A DNA stretch of 64,000 nucleotides from a phage, in sequence record PV467748.1. The stretch is one strand, 5' to 3'. The position numbers and the translations under genes are program-made. Within the stretch, counting starts at the first letter, position 1. Every line of letters starts with the position of its first letter. Shown here in pieces: positions 6,778 to 58,698 of the stretch. A model generated the notes under the pieces. The model was not told where the DNA came from. It saw only the letters and a program-made list of their open reading frames with translations, and did not search any database.

Positions 6778-7103
6778 TTCGCAGCCTTAACAATTTTCAG
6801 GTCAACGAATTTTTTCTTACGTTGGTTTTTCATGCGGCGGATAGTTTTATCCGTAATTTCACCTGGCTGCCAAGCTTTAGATTCAACACCAAAGGCGGCC
6901 ACATCAAACTCGTCGAGAATATATTGAACCAGGATTTCACGAATACCATTCTTACCAATTTTCTGGTCTTTAGAATGCATAATTGGTAACAGTTCAGCAA
7001 CCCATTGGTCGAGAATTTCAGGAGTCACAAAACCTGTATTCATCAGTTCGTTTACTTTATCGAAAGCGAAAGAGTTCAGTACGTTTTTGATTGCTTGTGA
7101 CAT
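6774..7103 (-). CDS. hypothetical protein (109 aa) with MSQAI N-terminus
   Basis: Track ORF 6774..7265 trimmed to the ATG preceded by CTGAGGAAATTATT; the N-terminal extension in the track covers promoter sequence. Confidence 0.5.
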   Translation of the reverse strand: MSQAIKNVLNSFAFDKVNELMNTGFVTPEILDQWVAELLPIMHSKDQKIGKNGIREILVQYILDEFDVAAFGVESKAWQPGEITDKTIRRMKNQRKKKFVDLKIVKAAK

Positions 7104-7175
7104 AATAATTTCCTCAGTTTTAAATTTATAATCCGTAGGACCATTATACTCTGGTCCCAAGAGTTTGTAAACTAT
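7104..7175 (-). promoter_or_regulatory. early-type promoter plus conserved leader (GTTTAC -35, ~18-bp spacer, TATAAT then GGTCCTACGG, SD GAGGAAATTATT)
   Basis: Minus-strand read: TAGTTTACAAACTCTTGGGACCAGAGTATAATGGTCCTACGG...CTGAGGAAATTATTATG; leader shared with the gene starting at 14376. Confidence 0.5.
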
Positions 7176-10818: not shown

Positions 10819-11070
10819 TTAAATTCCTAATACTTGTTTGAATGCTTCAGAACGGTCAAGTTCTGTTCCATATTTTTCGAGGTGTTCGTATTTTAAATCA
10901 TACACATCAGATAGTATATTATTATACGAACGAGTTAAAGCAGATTTCAATACTGAATAACTGTCCGGAAATTTACCGTGCTCTTTATAATAAGCTAGAG
11001 TAAGTTCACGAACCGCCTTATCGGCGGCCTCTACATATTCTTTACGCTTTGCCATTTTCGTCTCGCTCAA
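10819..11070 (-). CDS. hypothetical protein (83 aa)
   Basis: Track ORF. Confidence 0.45.
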
Positions 11071-11263
11071 ATTTGTGCTTACAATGACGGCATTTATACT
11101 GAAGAGGGTTATGACGCCAATAAGTCAATTGGACCTGTTCAGTTCCACATTCAGGACAATTTGGAACATTCTTAGAAGCTCGTTCGCGACGTTCTACAAT
11201 TTTAATAATTTGATTCCAATCAGGAATACTTTGGTCGATATCATCGGCTAATTGGTATTTCAT
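11042..11263 (-). CDS. small zinc-ribbon protein (two CxxC pairs)
   Basis: 73-aa track ORF with CPEC...CRHC motif. Confidence 0.45.
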
Positions 11264-12270
11264 TTCAACAGCTCCAGAGCTTGTTCAAGACGGTCTAAAC
11301 GATTGGTAGACTCTTCCCAAAGTTTCTTGGCAGCGGTATATTGGCCAGCCAGTTTTTTGTTAATAGCAAGGGCATCTTTATACGCTTTTTCTAAGGCAAC
11401 GATTTCCGGTAACTTGGATTTAGTAATTGGTGTAGGAGCCATGATAGGGCTGTTCAAGTCGTTAATCAAGTCTTCTAATGTAGCAGGCTCTTTATCAGTA
11501 TTCACAATTTCCTCACATTTTTCTTGGTAAATTTCGGCGTCAGTTTTTGGAACAGGGCATTTGATTTCGCGAACTGTTACCAAAACTTCATATCCTTTCC
11601 AGCCTAAGTGGTGTTTAACTTCTTGGGTCTCATATTTCTCTACGGTATCCATCAAAGCTAAGGCTTGTTCGATAGTATTCAAGGTATCGTAAGCAATATC
11701 TTGATACTTTACAACTTCCGCATCATCTTTAGGTTTCCTATTAGGTGACCAAATAACAGAAATAATAGCTTTTCCTTTATAACTATTTGTTTTAATCATG
11801 CAATTAGCCATCGGGTGAATAGTACGGCAATCACCGGAAACTATAGTTTTAGAGGCCGCTTTGAGAATTAATGCAGAGTTAGCCTTGAATTCGCTAACCC
11901 AACGTTGCGGAAATAAACTACTAGGGTCCATACCTTTAATTTTGATATAACTATTTATGGTATCACCAAACCATTTGTAGCTAACAACACGGTTGGAACC
12001 TGGGTGTTTCTCTTTGCCAAACTCTGAAAGGATGTCCTTATTGACCAGTCGCGAAAGCAGTCGAGAACCTTTAAATGTTTTAATGATATCATGAATGCAC
12101 AAACGGCCTGCAATCTTTTCGATTTCAGCTTTGAAACAGCGCGATAATGCATCATCAATTTGGTCGACCCATTTATTGATATTAGAAACTATTACCACAT
12201 ATGGGGTTAATGGAGGGGTATTGGCAGTGATATACGTAGTAAAGGCATTGATGTATTCGGTACGGGTCAT
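11260..12270 (-). CDS. hypothetical protein (~336 aa) with C-terminal coiled coil
   Basis: Track ORF 11260..12330 trimmed to the ATG (MTRTEYINAF...) that follows the promoter cassette and SD GAGGAG; the first 20 track codons are promoter sequence. Confidence 0.5.
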   Translation of the reverse strand: MTRTEYINAFTTYITANTPPLTPYVVIVSNINKWVDQIDDALSRCFKAEIEKIAGRLCIHDIIKTFKGSRLLSRLVNKDILSEFGKEKHPGSNRVVSYKWFGDTINSYIKIKGMDPSSLFPQRWVSEFKANSALILKAASKTIVSGDCRTIHPMANCMIKTNSYKGKAIISVIWSPNRKPKDDAEVVKYQDIAYDTLNTIEQALALMDTVEKYETQEVKHHLGWKGYEVLVTVREIKCPVPKTDAEIYQEKCEEIVNTDKEPATLEDLINDLNSPIMAPTPITKSKLPEIVALEKAYKDALAINKKLAGQYTAAKKLWEESTNRLDRLEQALELLK

Positions 12271-12274
12271 GATA

Positions 12275-12329
12275 TTCTCCTCAGTAGTTGATAAAAGGAT
12301 TATACTCCATCCGTCCTTGGATGTAAACA
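12275..12329 (-). promoter_or_regulatory. early promoter cassette (-35 GTTTAC, ~18-bp spacer, -10 TATAAT)
   Basis: Plus ctcctcagtagttgataaaaggattatactccatccgtccttggatgtaaacat; degenerate family member without clear arms. Confidence 0.5.
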
Positions 12330-13223
12330 TTATTTTAGAGCTAATAGTGCCGCGCGAAGCTTGTCACGTTGGGCTTCCATATTCTTGATGCTATTCAGAA
12401 CGTCTTGAATACTCTTTTTCTCATCTTCAATCTGACCATTTAAACGGTGGATTGATTCCTGAATGCTATCTGCATAATAGGTCTCAATAGGTTTCATCGT
12501 AGGGTTAGTAACAACCAAAGAATTATCAGGTTTAATTTTCCAATGATACGGTTCTGAATTGAATGGCCTCGGCACAGCAGTGGTTTTGAATTTGTCATAA
12601 GTAGCATACTGACCTACAGGCCCATATGACGCAGTGGAGATTCGACGTTCCATTTGTGGTTCCTTTTGTTGGGATTGATAAGGGGCATAAGACAAAAGAT
12701 ATTCACGAGTTAGTTTAACATTAAAATACACCGCATCAGGCCGTCCGGAACAATCAGCATATTCATCGGTTGTAACCTTATATGATTCTACGGCCTTAAT
12801 ACGAGTCATTGCTTCTCTGAATAAGGTTTCGAATGCTTCACGAAGGGCCTTATTGCCTTTTGAGGTAGGACGGAAACGAACTTGGATACCGTCAGCCAGA
12901 ATATTAATGACTAGGTTACGAGCCGTAAAATTAATATTCTTGATATTGACAGGAACCGTAGAAATACGTCCTGCAGTAGCCAAGAGGTCTTTAATATTAG
13001 CTCGTAATGTCGCGCCAAATAAATGAGCTGGGCTACGGCAATAATCGTTCAAAGAACTAATATAAGTTCCTTTACGGCCTACGCCGTAAGTGTAGTTACC
13101 ATTACGAATCTGGCCGAAGTCGGCCAGCCGATCGATAGCGATACGACGTGTGGTATCAAAATCATATCGGGAATATTCTTTACGCGTTTTAATGTTCATA
13201 TTAAAGTCCAAATAATTTTTCAT
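12330..13223 (-). CDS. hypothetical protein (297 aa) with C-terminal coiled coil
   Basis: Track ORF; C-terminus ...EAQRDKLRAALLALK. Confidence 0.5.
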   Translation of the reverse strand: MKNYLDFNMNIKTRKEYSRYDFDTTRRIAIDRLADFGQIRNGNYTYGVGRKGTYISSLNDYCRSPAHLFGATLRANIKDLLATAGRISTVPVNIKNINFTARNLVINILADGIQVRFRPTSKGNKALREAFETLFREAMTRIKAVESYKVTTDEYADCSGRPDAVYFNVKLTREYLLSYAPYQSQQKEPQMERRISTASYGPVGQYATYDKFKTTAVPRPFNSEPYHWKIKPDNSLVVTNPTMKPIETYYADSIQESIHRLNGQIEDEKKSIQDVLNSIKNMEAQRDKLRAALLALK

Positions 13224-13401
13224 AGAATTTAGCTAAAGGCCAAGTCACAATAGAAACTATTCCAAATAAAGCAAGCACTGGCCAAATAAAGGTAGCGAAT
13301 ACTGCTTCGCCACCTGAGCTAATTTCCATATGTTTGCGGCCAATCAGAACAGTAATGAATCCTAATGCAAGGTACAGAAGAATAAAACCTGCGATTTCCA
13401 T
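13201..13401 (-). CDS. small membrane protein (66 aa, two predicted TM helices)
   Basis: Track ORF MEIAGFILLYLALGFITVLIGRK...IWPVLALFGIVSIVTW.... Confidence 0.45.
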   Translation of the reverse strand: MEIAGFILLYLALGFITVLIGRKHMEISSGGEAVFATFIWPVLALFGIVSIVTWPLAKFYEKLFGL

Positions 13402-13403
13402 AA

Positions 13404-14376
13404 TTAATCCTTAAGAAGATTTAAGATATCGATATATTTCTGGCGTTCAGCCTTAGCTTTGGCATTCAGACCAGAGAGTCGGAAAATCTCATCATCTTGT
13501 TGTTGAATTGTAACATTCAAGCAAGTAAGCAAATTGCTAAAATACTCGATTTGAGCTTGATGCTTCTCATTGCTGCGCACCGGTACAGGTTCTGGTTTAG
13601 GAGCTTGTTCTGAATGCTCCTCAGCCTGGTCTTTAATTTTATAAAGTTTAATACGCTGACCCACTCCAGTTTCGGCATCACCAAAACTAAGAACACCGCG
13701 CTGTTCTAATACAGACAGGGCCAATCGGAGATGGAACTTCCAGTTGTCATATTGACAACCACTAAAAGTTGAAATGGTATACTCATTTTCATTTCCGGGG
13801 TGGTTAACAATATTAAAGATAATCCGATCACCTGAACCATTAGTCTTAAAGGTCATTTGTTTATCTTGACCTTTTGCAAGTCGAGCACCAAGAGCCAGTA
13901 GACGTCGTTGGTTGGCATGAAGGTCTTGAACAACTTCGTCAAATGACATCGTCATCACCTGAACCATTAGTCTTAAAGGTCATTTGTTTATCTTGACCTT
14001 TTGCAAGTCGAGCACCAAGAGCCAGTAGACGTCGTTGGTTGGCATGAAGGTCTTGAACAACTTCGTCAAATGACATCGTCGGGATTAAACGTCCGTAGAG
14101 GTCATAGCCTTTGTTATAATTTTTAAGAATAATTTTGGCATTAGCACGAGACAACATACCCGTTTTACGAAGAGTTTTCATGACTCGGTCTTCTAACGTA
14201 AACGAACCTTTAGTCTTGTCAAAGATTTTAGTGAAGTCATCTTTAACAGTACAAACGTTGAACTTGTCCCACATCATATATAGAACCTTTTCAACTACTT
14301 CTTTAGTACTCGGAATACGACCAAATTTAATAACTTTTTTAACTTCAGAACGAATTTGATTAATTGCCTGTGACAT
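13404..14376 (-). pseudogene. gene split by a frameshifting 127-bp tandem duplication (two overlapping track ORFs; intact form ~280 aa)
   Basis: Track ORFs 13939..14376 and 13404..13967 both contain the 41-aa segment MSFDEVVQDLHANQRRLLALGARLAKGQDKQMTFKTNGSGD; codon arithmetic puts the two copies 127 nt apart; the first ORF ends DDVI* at the junction. Confidence 0.6.
13827..14080. repeat. perfect tandem direct duplication, 2 x 127 bp
   Basis: Copy 1 13827-13953 and copy 2 13954-14080 read identically (atcacctgaaccattagtcttaaaggtcatttgtttatcttgacc...caaatgacatcgtc). Confidence 0.8.
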
Positions 14377-14440
14377 AATAATTTCCTCAGTAAGTAATTA
14401 AGAACCTAGAACCATTATACCATCCTTGGTATAAAGCGTT
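14377..14440 (-). promoter_or_regulatory. middle-promoter-like element (MotA-box-like CGCTTTA, 12 nt, TGgTATAAT) plus conserved leader shared with 7104-7175
   Basis: Minus-strand read: AAACGCTTTATACCAAGGATGGTATAATGGTTCTAGGTTC...CTGAGGAAATTATTATGTCACAGGCAATT. Confidence 0.45.
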
Positions 14441-14964
14441 TATGCGAGAACCGTCTTTAAACGCTCTTCAAATTTCTGAAGCAGAGCTTGGCGTTCAACT
14501 CGTTGTGATTTGTACTGCTCGATACGACCTGAAGTGAGGGCGTACTGTTCGTTTACTGATTCCCGCATGAATTCAGGAATCTCTTTACAAGCTTTGATTT
14601 CGTCAAACTTATCAATAACAGCTTGTTGTTCGGCAATCAGATTATCGAAATAAGCGATATCAGATTTAACGTTTGCCAGGTCGGATTCAGTAGGCATTAA
14701 ACGTTTGTTACGTTCAGCTTGATAAGCTTGATTGTTTTCACGACTCCAGTGAAGAGTACGTTTTTTGTTAGTGTTTTTATAGAGCTCTACAATACCAACT
14801 GAATCGATGACTGCAATCCAGTTCCAACGGCTTTTGTAAATCTCTCCTCCAGATACGGTAATCTCATTACCACAAGCAACGTCGTTAAAGAACTTGCTTT
14901 GTTTTTCAGATTTGAAATTACCATTGTTAAAATTAATCAGTGAAAAAATATCTTTAGCGTTCAT
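14440..14964 (-). CDS. hypothetical protein (174 aa)
   Basis: Track ORF directly downstream of the promoter cassette 14969-15020. Confidence 0.5.
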   Translation of the reverse strand: MNAKDIFSLINFNNGNFKSEKQSKFFNDVACGNEITVSGGEIYKSRWNWIAVIDSVGIVELYKNTNKKRTLHWSRENNQAYQAERNKRLMPTESDLANVKSDIAYFDNLIAEQQAVIDKFDEIKACKEIPEFMRESVNEQYALTSGRIEQYKSQRVERQALLQKFEERLKTVLA

Positions 14965-14968
14965 GATA

Positions 14969-15020
14969 ACCTCCAGTAGTTGATAGGTCTATAGTATCAT
15001 TTCTACTGGAGATGTAAACA
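14969..15020 (-). promoter_or_regulatory. early promoter cassette (PeSL-like): -35 GTTTAC, 17-bp spacer, -10 TACTAT, perfect 9-bp arms ctccagtag/ctactggag
   Basis: Plus cctccagtagttgataggtctatagtatcatttctactggagatgtaaaca. Confidence 0.65.
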
Positions 15021-15021
15021 A

Positions 15022-15363
15022 CTAATAGAAACTTTTTTCACCTGCTTGACCACTAAACCATGCGGATTGAGTGTTCTCTTTCCGTTGGTGTTTAATACGA
15101 ATAAGGTATTCGTTCCTGATGGCGCAGAGTTCATCTCTGAAGTCGACTGCCAACTTAACCTGCTTACGGTCTAGATTTATTAAGGCCTGGGTCTTCGCGG
15201 CCAAGGCCAGTCTCTTGTAGTCTCCTTCTTCACAATCGGTTTTGTAAACCTTCTCGGCGAATTGGTGTTTAAATTCATTATCATAGTCTTCAATAGACTG
15301 TTTCATGGCATTAGAGTATTTCAACTCTGCTTTTATAAGGTCATAACTAAATTGTTCGAACAT
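15022..15363 (-). CDS. hypothetical protein (113 aa)
   Basis: Track ORF. Confidence 0.45.
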   Translation of the reverse strand: MFEQFSYDLIKAELKYSNAMKQSIEDYDNEFKHQFAEKVYKTDCEEGDYKRLALAAKTQALINLDRKQVKLAVDFRDELCAIRNEYLIRIKHQRKENTQSAWFSGQAGEKSFY

Positions 15364-15373
15364 AATTTCACCT

Positions 15374-16354
15374 TTATTTCAGAAGTGTAACTTCAGCGAT
15401 TTCGCTCCAGTCATTTTTATCGGTGGCAATGAAGTCCGCCAGATAAAGAGCCGTACGTAATGATACGTTACGAAGACGAGATACATTGGCCTTCATCCAT
15501 GCTAGAGCTTGATAAGTCTCAGCATCAGTCAGACCTCGGTTTTGCATCATATCAGTGGACAGGATAACGTCTTCAACACGAACCATAATCTCTTCATTCG
15601 AGTGAACTCCGAGGTCTAAGTAAACTGAACGAGATACTAAAGCCTGGAGGTGTGGAGCAAGTTTAGTGCCGCGTTCTAATTCACGGTCAATATCAACGTT
15701 GGTGATGAACACGATGGTGCCTTCATATTCGAATTCTTTATCGATATTTTTATCATCGAGGTAAGAACTTGAAGTGCTCCAGCACACCTTACGTTTTTCA
15801 CCGGTATCCAATGCCGCTTTTAACAGGTTCAGGATATCCATATCAGAGAATACATCGACATCATCGATAAGAAGAACACTATTAGGGCCGCGGTTATTCC
15901 AAAGCTGCTCGTAAAGACCGATTCCACTAATCTTTCCGTTGATTGATTTATATTCGATAGTTTCATTTTCGTGGGCATTCTGTAATGCTTTATCCAAAGA
16001 ATACGTTTTACCAATACCTGCGGCACCAGAGATGATAAGGGAACGAATTTTACCATCGATGATTCCGTTAGTCATCATGTTCATTACTTTAAAACGTTTG
16101 TTGATGCGGTGTTTCATTTCTTCAGCGGATTCAGTAACCACTACAGGAGCTTCAGCACCTTCCATTTCAACATCACATTTGAACACCCATATACCACGTT
16201 CAACACCATCAATCTGTACGAATACCTTGCCATCACCGAGGTGAGCTTCGGATTCATGAATTTTATTAGGGAACCAGGTTTTACCTGAACTCATGAACGT
16301 ACCAGAGATTTCATTACCGCGATAGATACCTTTGTTGATTTTGATAGTTAACAT
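15374..16354 (-). CDS. P-loop ATPase (AAA-like core)
   Basis: Track ORF 15374..16477 trimmed to the ATG (MLTIKINKG...) after SD GGAGAATATA; Walker A GAAGIGKT, Walker B VLLIDDVD, sensor-like FITN. Confidence 0.6.
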   Translation of the reverse strand: MLTIKINKGIYRGNEISGTFMSSGKTWFPNKIHESEAHLGDGKVFVQIDGVERGIWVFKCDVEMEGAEAPVVVTESAEEMKHRINKRFKVMNMMTNGIIDGKIRSLIISGAAGIGKTYSLDKALQNAHENETIEYKSINGKISGIGLYEQLWNNRGPNSVLLIDDVDVFSDMDILNLLKAALDTGEKRKVCWSTSSSYLDDKNIDKEFEYEGTIVFITNVDIDRELERGTKLAPHLQALVSRSVYLDLGVHSNEEIMVRVEDVILSTDMMQNRGLTDAETYQALAWMKANVSRLRNVSLRTALYLADFIATDKNDWSEIAEVTLLK

Positions 16355-16359
16355 TATAT

Positions 16360-16422
16360 TCTCCGTTTCACTCAGTAGATTTGATAGGTCCATAATAACA
16401 TGCTCTACGAGGTTGTAAACAC
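16360..16422 (-). promoter_or_regulatory. early promoter cassette (-35 GTTTAC, 17-bp spacer, -10 TATTAT)
   Basis: Plus ...ctcagtagatttgataggtccataataacatgctctacgaggttgtaaac. Confidence 0.55.
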
Positions 16423-16439
16423 TTTTTTGCACTAAACCC

Positions 16440-16462
16440 AAAAAAAGGACCCCGAAGGGTCC
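16440..16462 (-). terminator. intrinsic terminator (GGACCC-TTCG-GGGTCC then T7 on minus strand)
   Basis: Plus aaaaaaaggaccccgaagggtcc. Confidence 0.6.
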
Positions 16463-16686
16463 TAAATTGCGCTCCAATAATTATGGAAGCGGATATTATT
16501 GATAGCCCAGTTAATACAACGTCTTATCTGCTTAGTCGTAGGCTTGCATACGTACTTGAAATTGATTCTTCTACCGGTTTCTCTACAAACTACTTCAAGA
16601 TACCAACGACAGGTTTTATGAGGTCTTCCATATGACAGGAAAACCTTGATTTCTTCTTTAACGGTAATAAGAGTTGTGGTTGTCAA
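16462..16686 (-). CDS. small basic Cys-rich protein (74 aa)
   Basis: Track ORF; four Cys (CRW...C...C...C); overlaps the 3' end of the upstream gene by 29 nt. Confidence 0.35.
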   Translation of the reverse strand: MTTTTLITVKEEIKVFLSYGRPHKTCRWYLEVVCRETGRRINFKYVCKPTTKQIRRCINWAINNIRFHNYWSAI

Positions 16687-17668
16687 GATACACCTCTTCG
16701 ACGAACTTGTCCCAGAACTTCATGTCTACCTTCTCAGGCATACCGTTCTTAGCAGCCTGGATGGCTAGGACTTCAACCAAATCAACAGTATCTTCAAGAA
16801 GTTCTTGAACTTCTTTAAATGGTAATTCACCGGCTTTAATCAGCTTAATGATAGAGGCTTCACGCAATGGGAACACCAGGTCGCCTGTTTGGTAGATTTC
16901 CAACAATTGATACCCTGCGCGATAAGCATGGCTCAGAGCTTTCCAGTCAATACCTTCGTTAGCTTCAGCTTTACGGGCCCGTTCACCATATTCCGCATCG
17001 AGCTTATTCAGAGATTGCTTGAGCTCGATTAAAGATAAAGTAGTTTGGTACTTACGTCCAAGAACAGTATAGAACGTTTGAGGGCCTGTTTTCTCATGGT
17101 TATGGAATACCCATTCACAGAATTCGTTTTCAGGGAGTCGATGTTTGATATCTTCTACCTTAGTGCGACGTTGCTTAGTAGAACCATCTTCTTGATAATC
17201 AACCCACTGTTCAGGAATCTGGTTGACTATTGCCAGTACACCACGCAGAGCAGCCAGACGAGAACCTTTAACACCATATTTAGAAGCTTGCTTACGGACA
17301 TACCCTAAATAGGCTTTCATGTTGGTTGTATAGAACCGAGAACGGTTGTCTTGGATAAATTTCCATACATCAGGTAAATCAGATTTAACCACCATTTCAG
17401 GCGGAGTGTGGAGCATATCCAGAGCAACGGTTTCGCCATCAGCAGCCAGTTTAAAGAAATATTTCAGGCTATAAAGCTCATGGTCAACATCATCTTTAGT
17501 GTTTTTGGAAGCAGTGTTATTCGTGTTCAGGTTGGTATGGTTCATAGCCGTACCTAACAGAATATCACGCGGATGCGGAACAAAGATTTCTTTAAAATCG
17601 ATATCAGATTCCGGAGTACTTGTTCCATAAAGGTGGCTACCGAAGTAGCCCTTCATAATTGTTCTCAT
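16658..17668 (-). CDS. nucleotidyltransferase-fold protein (pol-beta superfamily motif GS-x10-SDIDF)
   Basis: Track ORF 16658..17698 starts at GTG; trimmed to the first ATG (MRTIMKGYFGSHLYGTSTPESDIDF...). Confidence 0.55.
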   Translation of the reverse strand: MRTIMKGYFGSHLYGTSTPESDIDFKEIFVPHPRDILLGTAMNHTNLNTNNTASKNTKDDVDHELYSLKYFFKLAADGETVALDMLHTPPEMVVKSDLPDVWKFIQDNRSRFYTTNMKAYLGYVRKQASKYGVKGSRLAALRGVLAIVNQIPEQWVDYQEDGSTKQRRTKVEDIKHRLPENEFCEWVFHNHEKTGPQTFYTVLGRKYQTTLSLIELKQSLNKLDAEYGERARKAEANEGIDWKALSHAYRAGYQLLEIYQTGDLVFPLREASIIKLIKAGELPFKEVQELLEDTVDLVEVLAIQAAKNGMPEKVDMKFWDKFVEEVYLDNHNSYYR

Positions 17669-19445: not shown

Positions 19446-19498
19446 TCTCCTCATTAGTTGATAGGTCTATAGTATCACGTTCCTAGAGGATGTAAACA
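19446..19498 (-). promoter_or_regulatory. early promoter cassette (PeSL-like): -35 GTTTAC, 17-bp spacer, -10 TACTAT, imperfect arms
   Basis: Plus tctcctcattagttgataggtctatagtatcacgttcctagaggatgtaaaca. Confidence 0.6.
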
Positions 19499-19506
19499 CC
19501 TAAACG

Positions 19507-24091: not shown

Positions 24092-24141
24092 TCTCCTGTA
24101 GTTGATAGGTCTATAGTACCACGTCTACAGGAGATGTAAAC
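24092..24141 (-). promoter_or_regulatory. early promoter cassette (PeSL-like): -35 GTTTAC, 17-bp spacer, -10 TACTAT, perfect arms ctcctgtag/ctacaggag
   Basis: Plus ctcctgtagttgataggtctatagtaccacgtctacaggagatgtaaac, immediately upstream of regB. Confidence 0.65.
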
Positions 24142-24145
24142 TGCT

Positions 24146-26635: not shown

Positions 26636-26686
26636 TCTCCTGTAGTTGATAGGTCTATAGTATCATGCCTACAGGAGATGTACACT
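26636..26686 (-). promoter_or_regulatory. early promoter cassette (PeSL-like): -35 GTGTAC, 17-bp spacer, -10 TACTAT, perfect arms ctcctgtag/ctacaggag
   Basis: Plus ctcctgtagttgataggtctatagtatcatgcctacaggagatgtacac, immediately upstream of denV. Confidence 0.6.
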
Positions 26687-26711
26687 GCTTTTTATCTATA
26701 AGAGGGCTTTA

Positions 26712-27324: not shown

Positions 27325-27390
27325 TAAATATTTTAATTGGTCTGTTCAAGTAACTGTATATATACTATCACAATTCTAGGAGATGTAAAC
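27325..27390 (-). promoter_or_regulatory. degenerate early promoter (-35 GTTTAC, 17-bp spacer, -10 TAGTAT) overlapping the 3' end of the upstream IP-like gene
   Basis: Minus-strand read GTTTACATCTCCTAGAATTGTGATAGTAT.... Confidence 0.45.
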
Positions 27391-27789
27391 TTATTTGTAA
27401 GTTTTCATCCAATTCTTGAACAAAGCCGCGACGTCTTTCTCTTTAACGTTCAGTTTAACGTCCAGCATTTTGCCACCAGCGGCACGTGTCTGACGAATCT
27501 TAGCCGTACCGGTTTCGCCGTTCCACTCAACATAATACTGTCCGGTGTTCATAGCGATACCATCGCCATAGTCTTCATTTTTAGAAGTGGTGAATGCCAG
27601 CTTCATAGTCTTAGATACACGAGCCTGCATGCCTGACTGTAGAGCGTTACGAACGCGAATAACCTGAGGAGTGGCCTGGGTCAGGTTCTCGTTCAGTTCT
27701 TCGGTGAACTCTTCGGATTCGAACATCGCCAAAAGTTCTTTAGATGCAGGAACTACATTCTCTGCGATAAATTCATTATAAGTTTTCAT
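27391..27789 (-). CDS. internal-protein-like gene with CTS (132 aa; ipIII position)
   Basis: Track ORF starting [10 protein letters not shown]; ends ...KNWMKTYK*, a CTS-like remnant at the 3' end. Confidence 0.6.
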
Positions 27790-30493: not shown

Positions 30494-30551
30494 TTTCACT
30501 CTGTTGTTTTGATAGGTCTATAGTATCACACCTATAGACCTTGTACACTGT
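30494..30551 (-). promoter_or_regulatory. early promoter cassette variant with internal 10-bp palindrome aggtctatag/ctatagacct (-35 GTGTAC, -10 TACTAT)
   Basis: Plus ctctgttgttttgataggtctatagtatcacacctatagaccttgtacac. Confidence 0.55.
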
Positions 30552-30560
30552 TTTGTGCAA

Positions 30561-35948: not shown

Positions 35949-36007
35949 CTCCTTCACTCTGTTGTTTTGATAGGTCTATAGTATCATGTTCTACGAAAGA
36001 GTAAACA
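35949..36007 (-). promoter_or_regulatory. early promoter cassette (-35 GTTTAC, 17-bp spacer, -10 TACTAT); leader shared with cassette at 30494
   Basis: Plus cactctgttgttttgataggtctatagtatcatgttctacgaaagagtaaacatc. Confidence 0.6.
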
Positions 36008-36028
36008 TCTTTTTAAACCTTTTAGAAA

Positions 36029-39519: not shown

Positions 39520-39578
39520 CGTGTGGTTGGTTTGTTTTGATAGGTCTATAGGCATGATACTATAGACCTTGTAAACAC
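39520..39578 (-). promoter_or_regulatory. early promoter cassette variant with internal palindrome aggtctatag/ctatagacct (-35 GTTTAC)
   Basis: Plus ttttgataggtctataggcatgatactatagaccttgtaaacacc. Confidence 0.5.
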
Positions 39579-39587
39579 CTTTTTAAA

Positions 39588-40486
<899 letters not shown>

Positions 40487-57172: not shown

Positions 57173-58698
57173 TGTCAACAAACACACTAAAACACATTAG
57201 TGATAAATCGGAATTCAAATCATTCGACCCTACTGGGTCGAATTTCCCGCCTGATATTACTAATGTTCAAGAAGCATTGGCAACTATTTCATTAATCGGC
57301 GTCACAGGTAATGTTCCTTCAGCTACAGAAACGTCCCAAGGCATTATTCGTCTTGCCACAACACAAGAAGTAATGGATGGTCTGGATGCTTATAGTGCAG
57401 TGACACCAGCAACTTTAAAAGCTCGTTTAGATATTCCTACTCAGGCAACAGAAACTTATGTAGGTATCACCCGTTATGCTACTAATGCTGAAGCTATAGC
57501 AGGCACAGAGCCCCAGGCTGCAATCGTAGCAACCTCTTTGAAAGCGGTAATGGATTATACATTTGAGAACCGTTTATCAACAGAGAACGCCACAGGCGTT
57601 ATCAAGATTTCAACTACACCTGCCGCATTAGCTGGTACCGACGATACCACAGCAATGACCCCACTTAAAGTATCGCAAGCAATTGGCGCGGCCACAGCGG
57701 CGTTACCGGTTTATTCTACAGCAACGACCACAAATGAAGGTTTGGTTCGTTTAGCTACTAATGCTGAAGTTGGCAATGGAAGTCTTTCGGTAGGTATTGC
57801 TATTTCTCCAGCCGGATTAGCCACATTAACTTCCACCGAAGCTCGAAGCGGTATTATTAAACTCGCTGGTTGGGATATGGTATCTAATGGTACCGACCAC
57901 ACTGCCGCTGTTACACCGGCTTCTTTGTTAGCTCGTACAGGTAATACCGGACGTATTGGGTTGGTTCGTTTATCTACTACCGTAGGTCAAGGTGATGGTA
58001 ATACAGCACTGGCTTATAATGCTAACGTTATTTCTACTTCAGGTGGTGAAATATGGGGTACTTTAAACGTTAATGGCGCGTTACGTCGTAACGGTGTTGA
58101 TGTTGTTACACATGACCAATTATCAGATAGCGTTCCGGTAGGTACTATTTGTATGTGGGGTGGCAATGAAGGTAATATACCTGGTAAATGGCGAGCTTGT
58201 GTAGGTGGGACTTATACTGGCGGTGCATATTTAAATGCTGTTGGTGGGCGTTGGGGATGGTGGGGTGCTATTCCAGATTTCCGTGGATTATATCCTCGTG
58301 GCGCTAACATGGTTGGTGGATATTCTGAAGGCGAAGTTAACCCACATATTGCTGGTAACCGAGGACAAGACGGTAAAGGTAAAGCCCGTTTAGGTAACGG
58401 TGTCGGTTCGTTCCCACAATCTTCCGTTCAAGCCCAAGCATTACGTTATCATAAACATGCCGGTGGTTTTGGTGAACATGATAACTATGGCGCTTTTGGT
58501 AACACCGCTAACTCCGGGTATGTTGGTACTCGTAAAGGCCTTGACTGGGATAACCGTAGTTATTATACCAACGAAGGTTTTGAGACCACCGATCCTTGGA
58601 ACCGTGATGGACATACCACATTGAATAGTGAAGGTCTTATTGCCAACGAAACACGTCCATGGACAATGTCCGTTCTTTTTATTATTAAAGTAGAATAA
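57172..58698 (+). CDS. 12: short tail fibre protein gp12
   Basis: 508-aa track ORF with repeated ATxxGxIRLAT-type motifs and a C-terminal His-rich knob region (RYHKHAGG). Confidence 0.85.
   Translation: MSTNTLKHISDKSEFKSFDPTGSNFPPDITNVQEALATISLIGVTGNVPSATETSQGIIRLATTQEVMDGLDAYSAVTPATLKARLDIPTQATETYVGITRYATNAEAIAGTEPQAAIVATSLKAVMDYTFENRLSTENATGVIKISTTPAALAGTDDTTAMTPLKVSQAIGAATAALPVYSTATTTNEGLVRLATNAEVGNGSLSVGIAISPAGLATLTSTEARSGIIKLAGWDMVSNGTDHTAAVTPASLLARTGNTGRIGLVRLSTTVGQGDGNTALAYNANVISTSGGEIWGTLNVNGALRRNGVDVVTHDQLSDSVPVGTICMWGGNEGNIPGKWRACVGGTYTGGAYLNAVGGRWGWWGAIPDFRGLYPRGANMVGGYSEGEVNPHIAGNRGQDGKGKARLGNGVGSFPQSSVQAQALRYHKHAGGFGEHDNYGAFGNTANSGYVGTRKGLDWDNRSYYTNEGFETTDPWNRDGHTTLNSEGLIANETRPWTMSVLFIIKVE

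Follow-up and report, generated by a model that had tools for sequence, protein, structure and literature searches.

The classical rII duplications of T4 are genuine tandem duplications in T-even phages, and real perfect tandem duplications do occur in phages. Headful packaging of the T4 type produces circularly permuted DNA, and because of this permutation a T4-type genome assembles as a cycle. Repeats can also be left behind by assembly itself. A length of 127 nt has been reported both as the top k value and as the length of the resulting artefact (PMC11210271, PMC5923482), and 127-bp terminal repeats have been taken off before a genome was "re-opened" (PMC8104045). In the CheckV study, the lengths of terminal repeats were found to pile up at k-mer sizes; the reason given is that a circular template is opened by the assembler at a random point, with a k-mer left on either end (PMC8116208). 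An internal repeat has been described as well: in PMC10438801, a 79-bp repeat in the SPAdes/Shovill assembly of a phage was identified as an artefact by a hybrid long-read workflow, and Sanger sequencing confirmed that such repeats were artefacts in most phages, that phage included.

We analyzed a perfect internal repeat in a 64,000-nt stretch of phage DNA (here called the window; record PV467748.1). The window belongs to a T4-like phage of the JS98/JS10 group, genus Dhakavirus, with best matches that are 94 to 98% identical; no record identical to the window was present in the phage collection. The repeat consists of 2.0 copies of a 127-nt unit with 100% matches and no indels (TRF score, 508), and a perfect repeat of this size cannot arise by chance. 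Identity between base i and base i+127 extends over exactly 127 nt; the repeat boundaries are therefore unambiguous, with no microhomology at the ends, and the flanks of the two copies do not have even one further base in common. No third copy of the 127-mer was found in the window, nor was any other sizeable tandem repeat. The window also holds a short perfect tandem repeat (15 nt × 2; TATTCTTCGTCAGAA) at 40250 to 40285. Coordinates of the features discussed here are collected in Table 1.

Table 1. Positions of the repeat, the surrounding genes, the variant sites, and the promoter-like motifs in the window
Feature	Position	Strand	Description
Copy 1 of the 127-nt unit	13827-13953		Downstream copy in gene orientation; 100% identical to 13954-14080
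Copy 2 of the 127-nt unit	13954-14080		Upstream copy in gene orientation
Central junction, 13953|13954	13940-13967		...CATCGTC|ATCACC...; sole sequence absent from the single-copy genome
nrdC.6 orthologue	13404-14376	-	PHROG 2257, function unknown; 973 nt as written, 846 nt/281 aa with one copy removed
ORF1, 145 aa	13939-14376	-	nrdC.6 residues 1-141 plus DDVI; ends ...GSGDDDVI*; stop codon TGA at 13941-13939
ORF2, 187 aa	13404-13967	-	MVQVM plus nrdC.6 residues 100-281; starts MVQVMTMSFDE...
nrdC.8 orthologue, 174 aa	14440-14964	-	Upstream neighbor of nrdC.6; conserved synteny
66-aa ORF	13201-13401		Other neighbor of nrdC.6
Site Z	13826		G here, A in 11/11 relatives; TGG to CGG, W142R; base immediately left of the unit
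Site Y	14079 (= 13952 in copy 1)		T here, C in 10/11 relatives; GCG to ACG, A100T; unit position 126
T4-type early-promoter-like motif	14980-15023	-	TTTACA-16-TACTAT with TG; upstream of nrdC.8; family D1
Nine motif copies	14980-15023, 16381-16424, 19458-19501, 24102-24145, 26646-26689, 27351-27394, 30509-30552, 35967-36010, 39537-39580		

Compared with the described systems, the repeat resembles the T-even duplications in its head-to-tail arrangement, its location in an early, non-essential part of a T4-type genome, and its frameshifting effect. However, T-even duplications can have any length, often carry short direct repeats at their borders, and are unstable, whereas here the length is that of an assembler parameter and microhomology is lacking. 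The terminal overlaps left by SPAdes at k = 127 match it in being exactly 127 nt long, perfect, arbitrarily placed with respect to genes, and found in a phage of a type whose genome is circularly permuted. Such overlaps lie at the two ends of a contig, but the present copies are adjacent and internal, which would take one further step. The 79-bp repeat of the przondovirus Tokugawa (PMC10438801) is internal, comes from a SPAdes-based assembly, and was unsupported by read depth, and we liken the present repeat to it, although the two differ in length and in phage family.

Both copies lie within the orthologue of nrdC.6. Deletion of one copy restored an 846-nt ORF encoding 281 amino acids, with 95 to 97% amino acid identity to the single-copy proteins of JS10, ABTNLS3, and AnYang; the JS10 counterpart, EpJS10_0085, is annotated as "NrdC.6." The PHROG 2257 profile matched the restored protein over its full length (E value, 2.9e-125; residues 1 to 281 over profile positions 1 to 303). 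Synteny was kept with JS10, ABTNLS3, AnYang, and QL01, with nrdC.8 upstream and a small ORF downstream. The restored gene contains no further lesion. In comparisons with 11 relatives its dN/dS ratio ranged from 0.06 to 0.21, which indicates that nrdC.6 has been under strong purifying selection right up to the present genome. No significant Pfam domain was detected in the restored protein and no sequence relative in the PDB, and nrdC.6 was mentioned nowhere in the literature searched. In many relatives (e.g., OR756449.1 and PP693301.1), nrdC.6, nrdC.8, and their neighbors are called "thioredoxin," and one small neighboring ORF in relatives is annotated as "RNA ligase 1 and tail fiber attachment catalyst." The Pfam search found no significant thioredoxin domain in restored nrdC.6, and annotations of the thioredoxin type look like names that have spread from the nrdC.x gene labels. 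At its start, nrdC.6 shows 82% DNA identity to an otherwise unrelated 109-aa minus-strand ORF that starts at 7102; the similarity covers the ribosome-binding region and the first five codons (MSQAI). Paralogy of the two genes, considered on the basis of repeat family D6 (14360 to 14404 versus 7087 to 7131), was rejected, as they have nothing beyond this stretch in common; judged from the sequence, this similarity looks like a common translation-initiation cassette.

In the record as written, nrdC.6 is split into two ORFs because 127 is not divisible by 3. The preliminary description had reported a perfect, adjacent 127-bp duplication that breaks an early gene of about 280 aa into two overlapping ORFs, the upstream one ending in DDVI*, and had noted that restart at ATGs within the junction was possible. 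Our reanalysis agrees on each of these points: the copies are identical over their whole length, the two ORFs encode 145 and 187 aa in place of the 281 aa of the restored gene, ORF1 ends as described, and in-frame ATGs for ORF2 lie at 13967, 13955, and 13949, together with a GTG at 13958. Both ORFs also encode a common segment as reported, but this segment (TMSFD...GSGD) is 42 aa long rather than 41. The ATG at 13949 to 13947 is that of native M101; it lies behind an SD-like CAGGTGAT, 5 nt before the ORF1 stop codon. The calculated anti-SD duplex energy was -4.5 kcal/mol at this ATG, versus -6.1 kcal/mol at the true gene start.

These overlapping ORFs are all that speaks for a functional arrangement, in which the gene would be deliberately split or read by programmed frameshifting across the repeated segment. 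We consider such an arrangement to have almost no chance of being correct: it would exist in one genome only, against 581 single-copy records, its two copies are identical in DNA and not merely in protein, and the orthologues are uninterrupted reading frames. If a true tandem duplication had arisen very recently, by illegitimate recombination or by a template switch during T4-type replication, and had become fixed in the stock, it would leave the gene as an N-terminal fragment of 145 aa and a C-terminal fragment of 187 aa, both keeping the 42-aa middle segment; we regard this outcome, and the event behind it, as unlikely. Were it so, production of ORF2 by termination-reinitiation at the duplicated M101 ATG, behind the CAGGTGAT created by the junction, is conceivable from the sequence, and the locus would capture a T4-like phage gene in the course of fission through out-of-frame tandem duplication. 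Several observations are in keeping with a genuine event. The repeat is present in the sequence as given, its perfect identity fits a very young duplication, and the junction makes a moderate SD-ATG arrangement that overlaps the ORF1 stop. Loss of nrdC.6 is also plausible, since the gene has no known function and its product no Pfam or PDB match; that this loss could be tolerable, and that real duplications of this kind are found in phages, both count against an assembly artefact. However, a real event that happens to have the length of the SPAdes maximum k has a low prior, and the end points lack the microhomology that is typical, though not obligatory, of such events. The selection that has maintained nrdC.6 up to the present likewise argues against it, and homologous recombination of the T4 type would be expected to make a perfect tandem repeat of 127 nt unstable. 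Slippage between the flanking CC...CC, the nearest direct repeat in the ancestral-type sequence, was rejected as a route to the repeat: it predicts a unit of 128 nt, not 127.

The distribution of the duplication among related genomes weighs against a genuine event as well. In the phage collection, each of the 581 records holding the segment (581/581) carries exactly one copy. No record in the collection crosses the junction: an 80-mer centered on it was covered to at most 50%, and every BLAST match to this 80-mer (14 records) stops at the junction. The junction 24- and 30-mers were absent from IMG/VR, JGI metagenomes, and GTDB genomes. An allele-specific positive control, the native right boundary, was likewise absent from IMG/VR and JGI; the negatives from these two sources are weak because the control allele is private there, and it is the negative from the phage collection that carries weight. 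Exact-protein searches of a contig index that includes Logan assemblies gave no match to ORF1, ORF2, or nrdC.8.

We aligned the restored gene with its 11 relatives and compared 884 sites, 6 of which are private to the present genome. The sites of W142R and A100T (sites Z and Y in Table 1), the first private and the second nearly so, affect residues conserved in most of the aligned relatives and are at distances of 0 and 2 nt from the respective ends of the unit, and the interval from 13826 to 13952, inclusive, is 127 nt. Since 13826 is directly left of the unit, the unit is the 127-mer Z+1 to Z+127. A 30-mer that forced the BLAST seed through the G at 13826 matched 0 of 50,697 records, versus 16 records for the A version. 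In a k = 127 graph built from the circularized single-copy locus with A/G at 13826, there were only two branching vertices, and one of them was exactly the repeat unit. Walking the cycle of this graph from that vertex and re-opening the resulting contig untrimmed yielded window positions 11001 to 17127 base for base, a reconstruction that is partly true by construction. The adjacency of 13826 to the unit could be due to chance (P of about 0.06 for a private base next to the unit under a strict definition). A genuine duplication makes a new central junction only and does not predict a private change at an outer boundary. Neither an artefact nor a real duplication specifically predicts the variant at unit position 126. 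Among the variant configurations considered, the unit becomes a branch vertex in the k = 127 graph only if 13826 is the sole variant site. A two-haplotype bubble spanning both variants was rejected, as its break vertices would fall at other 127-mers. Consensus polishing on a falsely duplicated reference was also rejected as the source of the boundary variants: reads that overhang the false copies would push toward A at 13953 and C at 13951, and by the same reasoning the expected changes are not G at 13826 or T at 13952/14079. That the repeat unit abuts a private variant suggests that break points of this kind lie at sites where the sequenced stock is polymorphic.

The private base beside the unit also hints at a polymorphic stock in this region, as would be the case if a real duplication were carried by part of the phage population (heteroplasmy) and had been written into the consensus by the assembler. 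We consider this very improbable. The objections to a fixed duplication apply here equally, a k = 127 graph normally collapses rather than expands a minority structural variant, and nothing within the window supports it.

Taken together, these data strongly suggest that the duplication is an untrimmed 127-bp assembler overlap, that is, an artefact of assembly or curation and not a real mutation. The repeat length equals a de Bruijn k value, 127; that the repeat is exactly k long, perfect, free of microhomology, indifferent to reading frame, and confined to one record favors this explanation. Short reads from a circularly permuted T4-like genome would assemble into a cycle, which a de Bruijn assembler working at the SPAdes maximum of k = 127, presumably the one used here, would write out as a linear contig whose first 127 nt equal its last 127 nt. 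The original contig would thus begin and end with ATCACCTGAACC...GACATCGTC, copy 1 being its last 127 nt and copy 2 its first 127 nt. If this contig was then re-opened at a conventional start, or if two graph-adjacent contigs were concatenated, with the overlap left untrimmed, the two copies of the k-mer would come to stand head to tail inside the record, within nrdC.6. A variant at 13826 in the stock that was sequenced probably determined where the cycle was broken, in which case the 127-mer following the variant site would be the vertex at which the branches of the graph rejoin. In the real phage, nrdC.6 would be single and intact, with 281 aa.

The start of the window bears on the re-opening step. 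Position 1 falls within gene 45, at a point equivalent to 31.9 to 33.0 kb in records opened at the T4 start; this position, the one observation from which we infer re-opening, is compatible with the window being a slice from 32,001 to 96,000 of a re-opened record. The AnYang record (MK234886.1/NC_055782.1), as seen from its positions 1 to 751, opens a short way downstream of gene 45 instead of at the rIIA start used by T4 convention. Owing to this start, the coordinates of the locus in AnYang are by accident nearly equal to those of the window (window position 1 = AnYang position 111).

The preliminary description had offered three causes for the duplication, a recent event, an assembly artefact, and a population polymorphism, unranked. 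Our analysis favors the artefact over the other two. The frameshift that headed that description is likewise probably absent from the real phage, given the artefact-type length, the 581 single-copy records, the intact ORF under selection, and the graph vertex; because the evidence favors an assembly artefact, nrdC.6 is probably not frameshifted there. Since the duplication is most likely an assembly leftover, the finding is an ordinary one: its biological weight is small, and its value is that of a curation flag. If the repeat is an artefact, the record contains 127 spurious bases and overstates the genome length by 127 bp, a conserved gene, nrdC.6, is mistaken for two ORFs or for a pseudogene, and automated comparisons would report a false gene disruption. 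Other records could be screened for internal tandem duplications that are perfect, lack microhomology, match an assembler k value in length (55, 77, 99, or 127), and break an otherwise conserved ORF.

Several other sequence elements were observed around nrdC.6 and elsewhere in the window. The T4-type early-promoter-like motif just upstream of nrdC.8 supports the assignment of this region to an early transcription unit. This motif is one of nine copies in the window of a 44- to 63-nt element, which on the minus strand reads GTTTAC-N~17-TA(C/T)(T/A)AT...GACCTATCAA (Table 1). By its sequence, the element looks like a T4-type early promoter with a conserved downstream extension, and several copies immediately precede minus-strand genes. 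Close to the start of nrdC.6, on its upstream side, the minus strand contains AAACGCTTTA-N12-TATAAT (14405 to 14437), which we take to resemble a T4 MotA-box middle promoter; a simple sigma-70 scan did not list this element. Three diverged copies (61 to 71%) of a 49-nt segment were found within about 450 nt, at 57322 to 57370, 57445 to 57493, and 57721 to 57769, and presumably represent a repeat within a structural gene of the baseplate/fibritin region.
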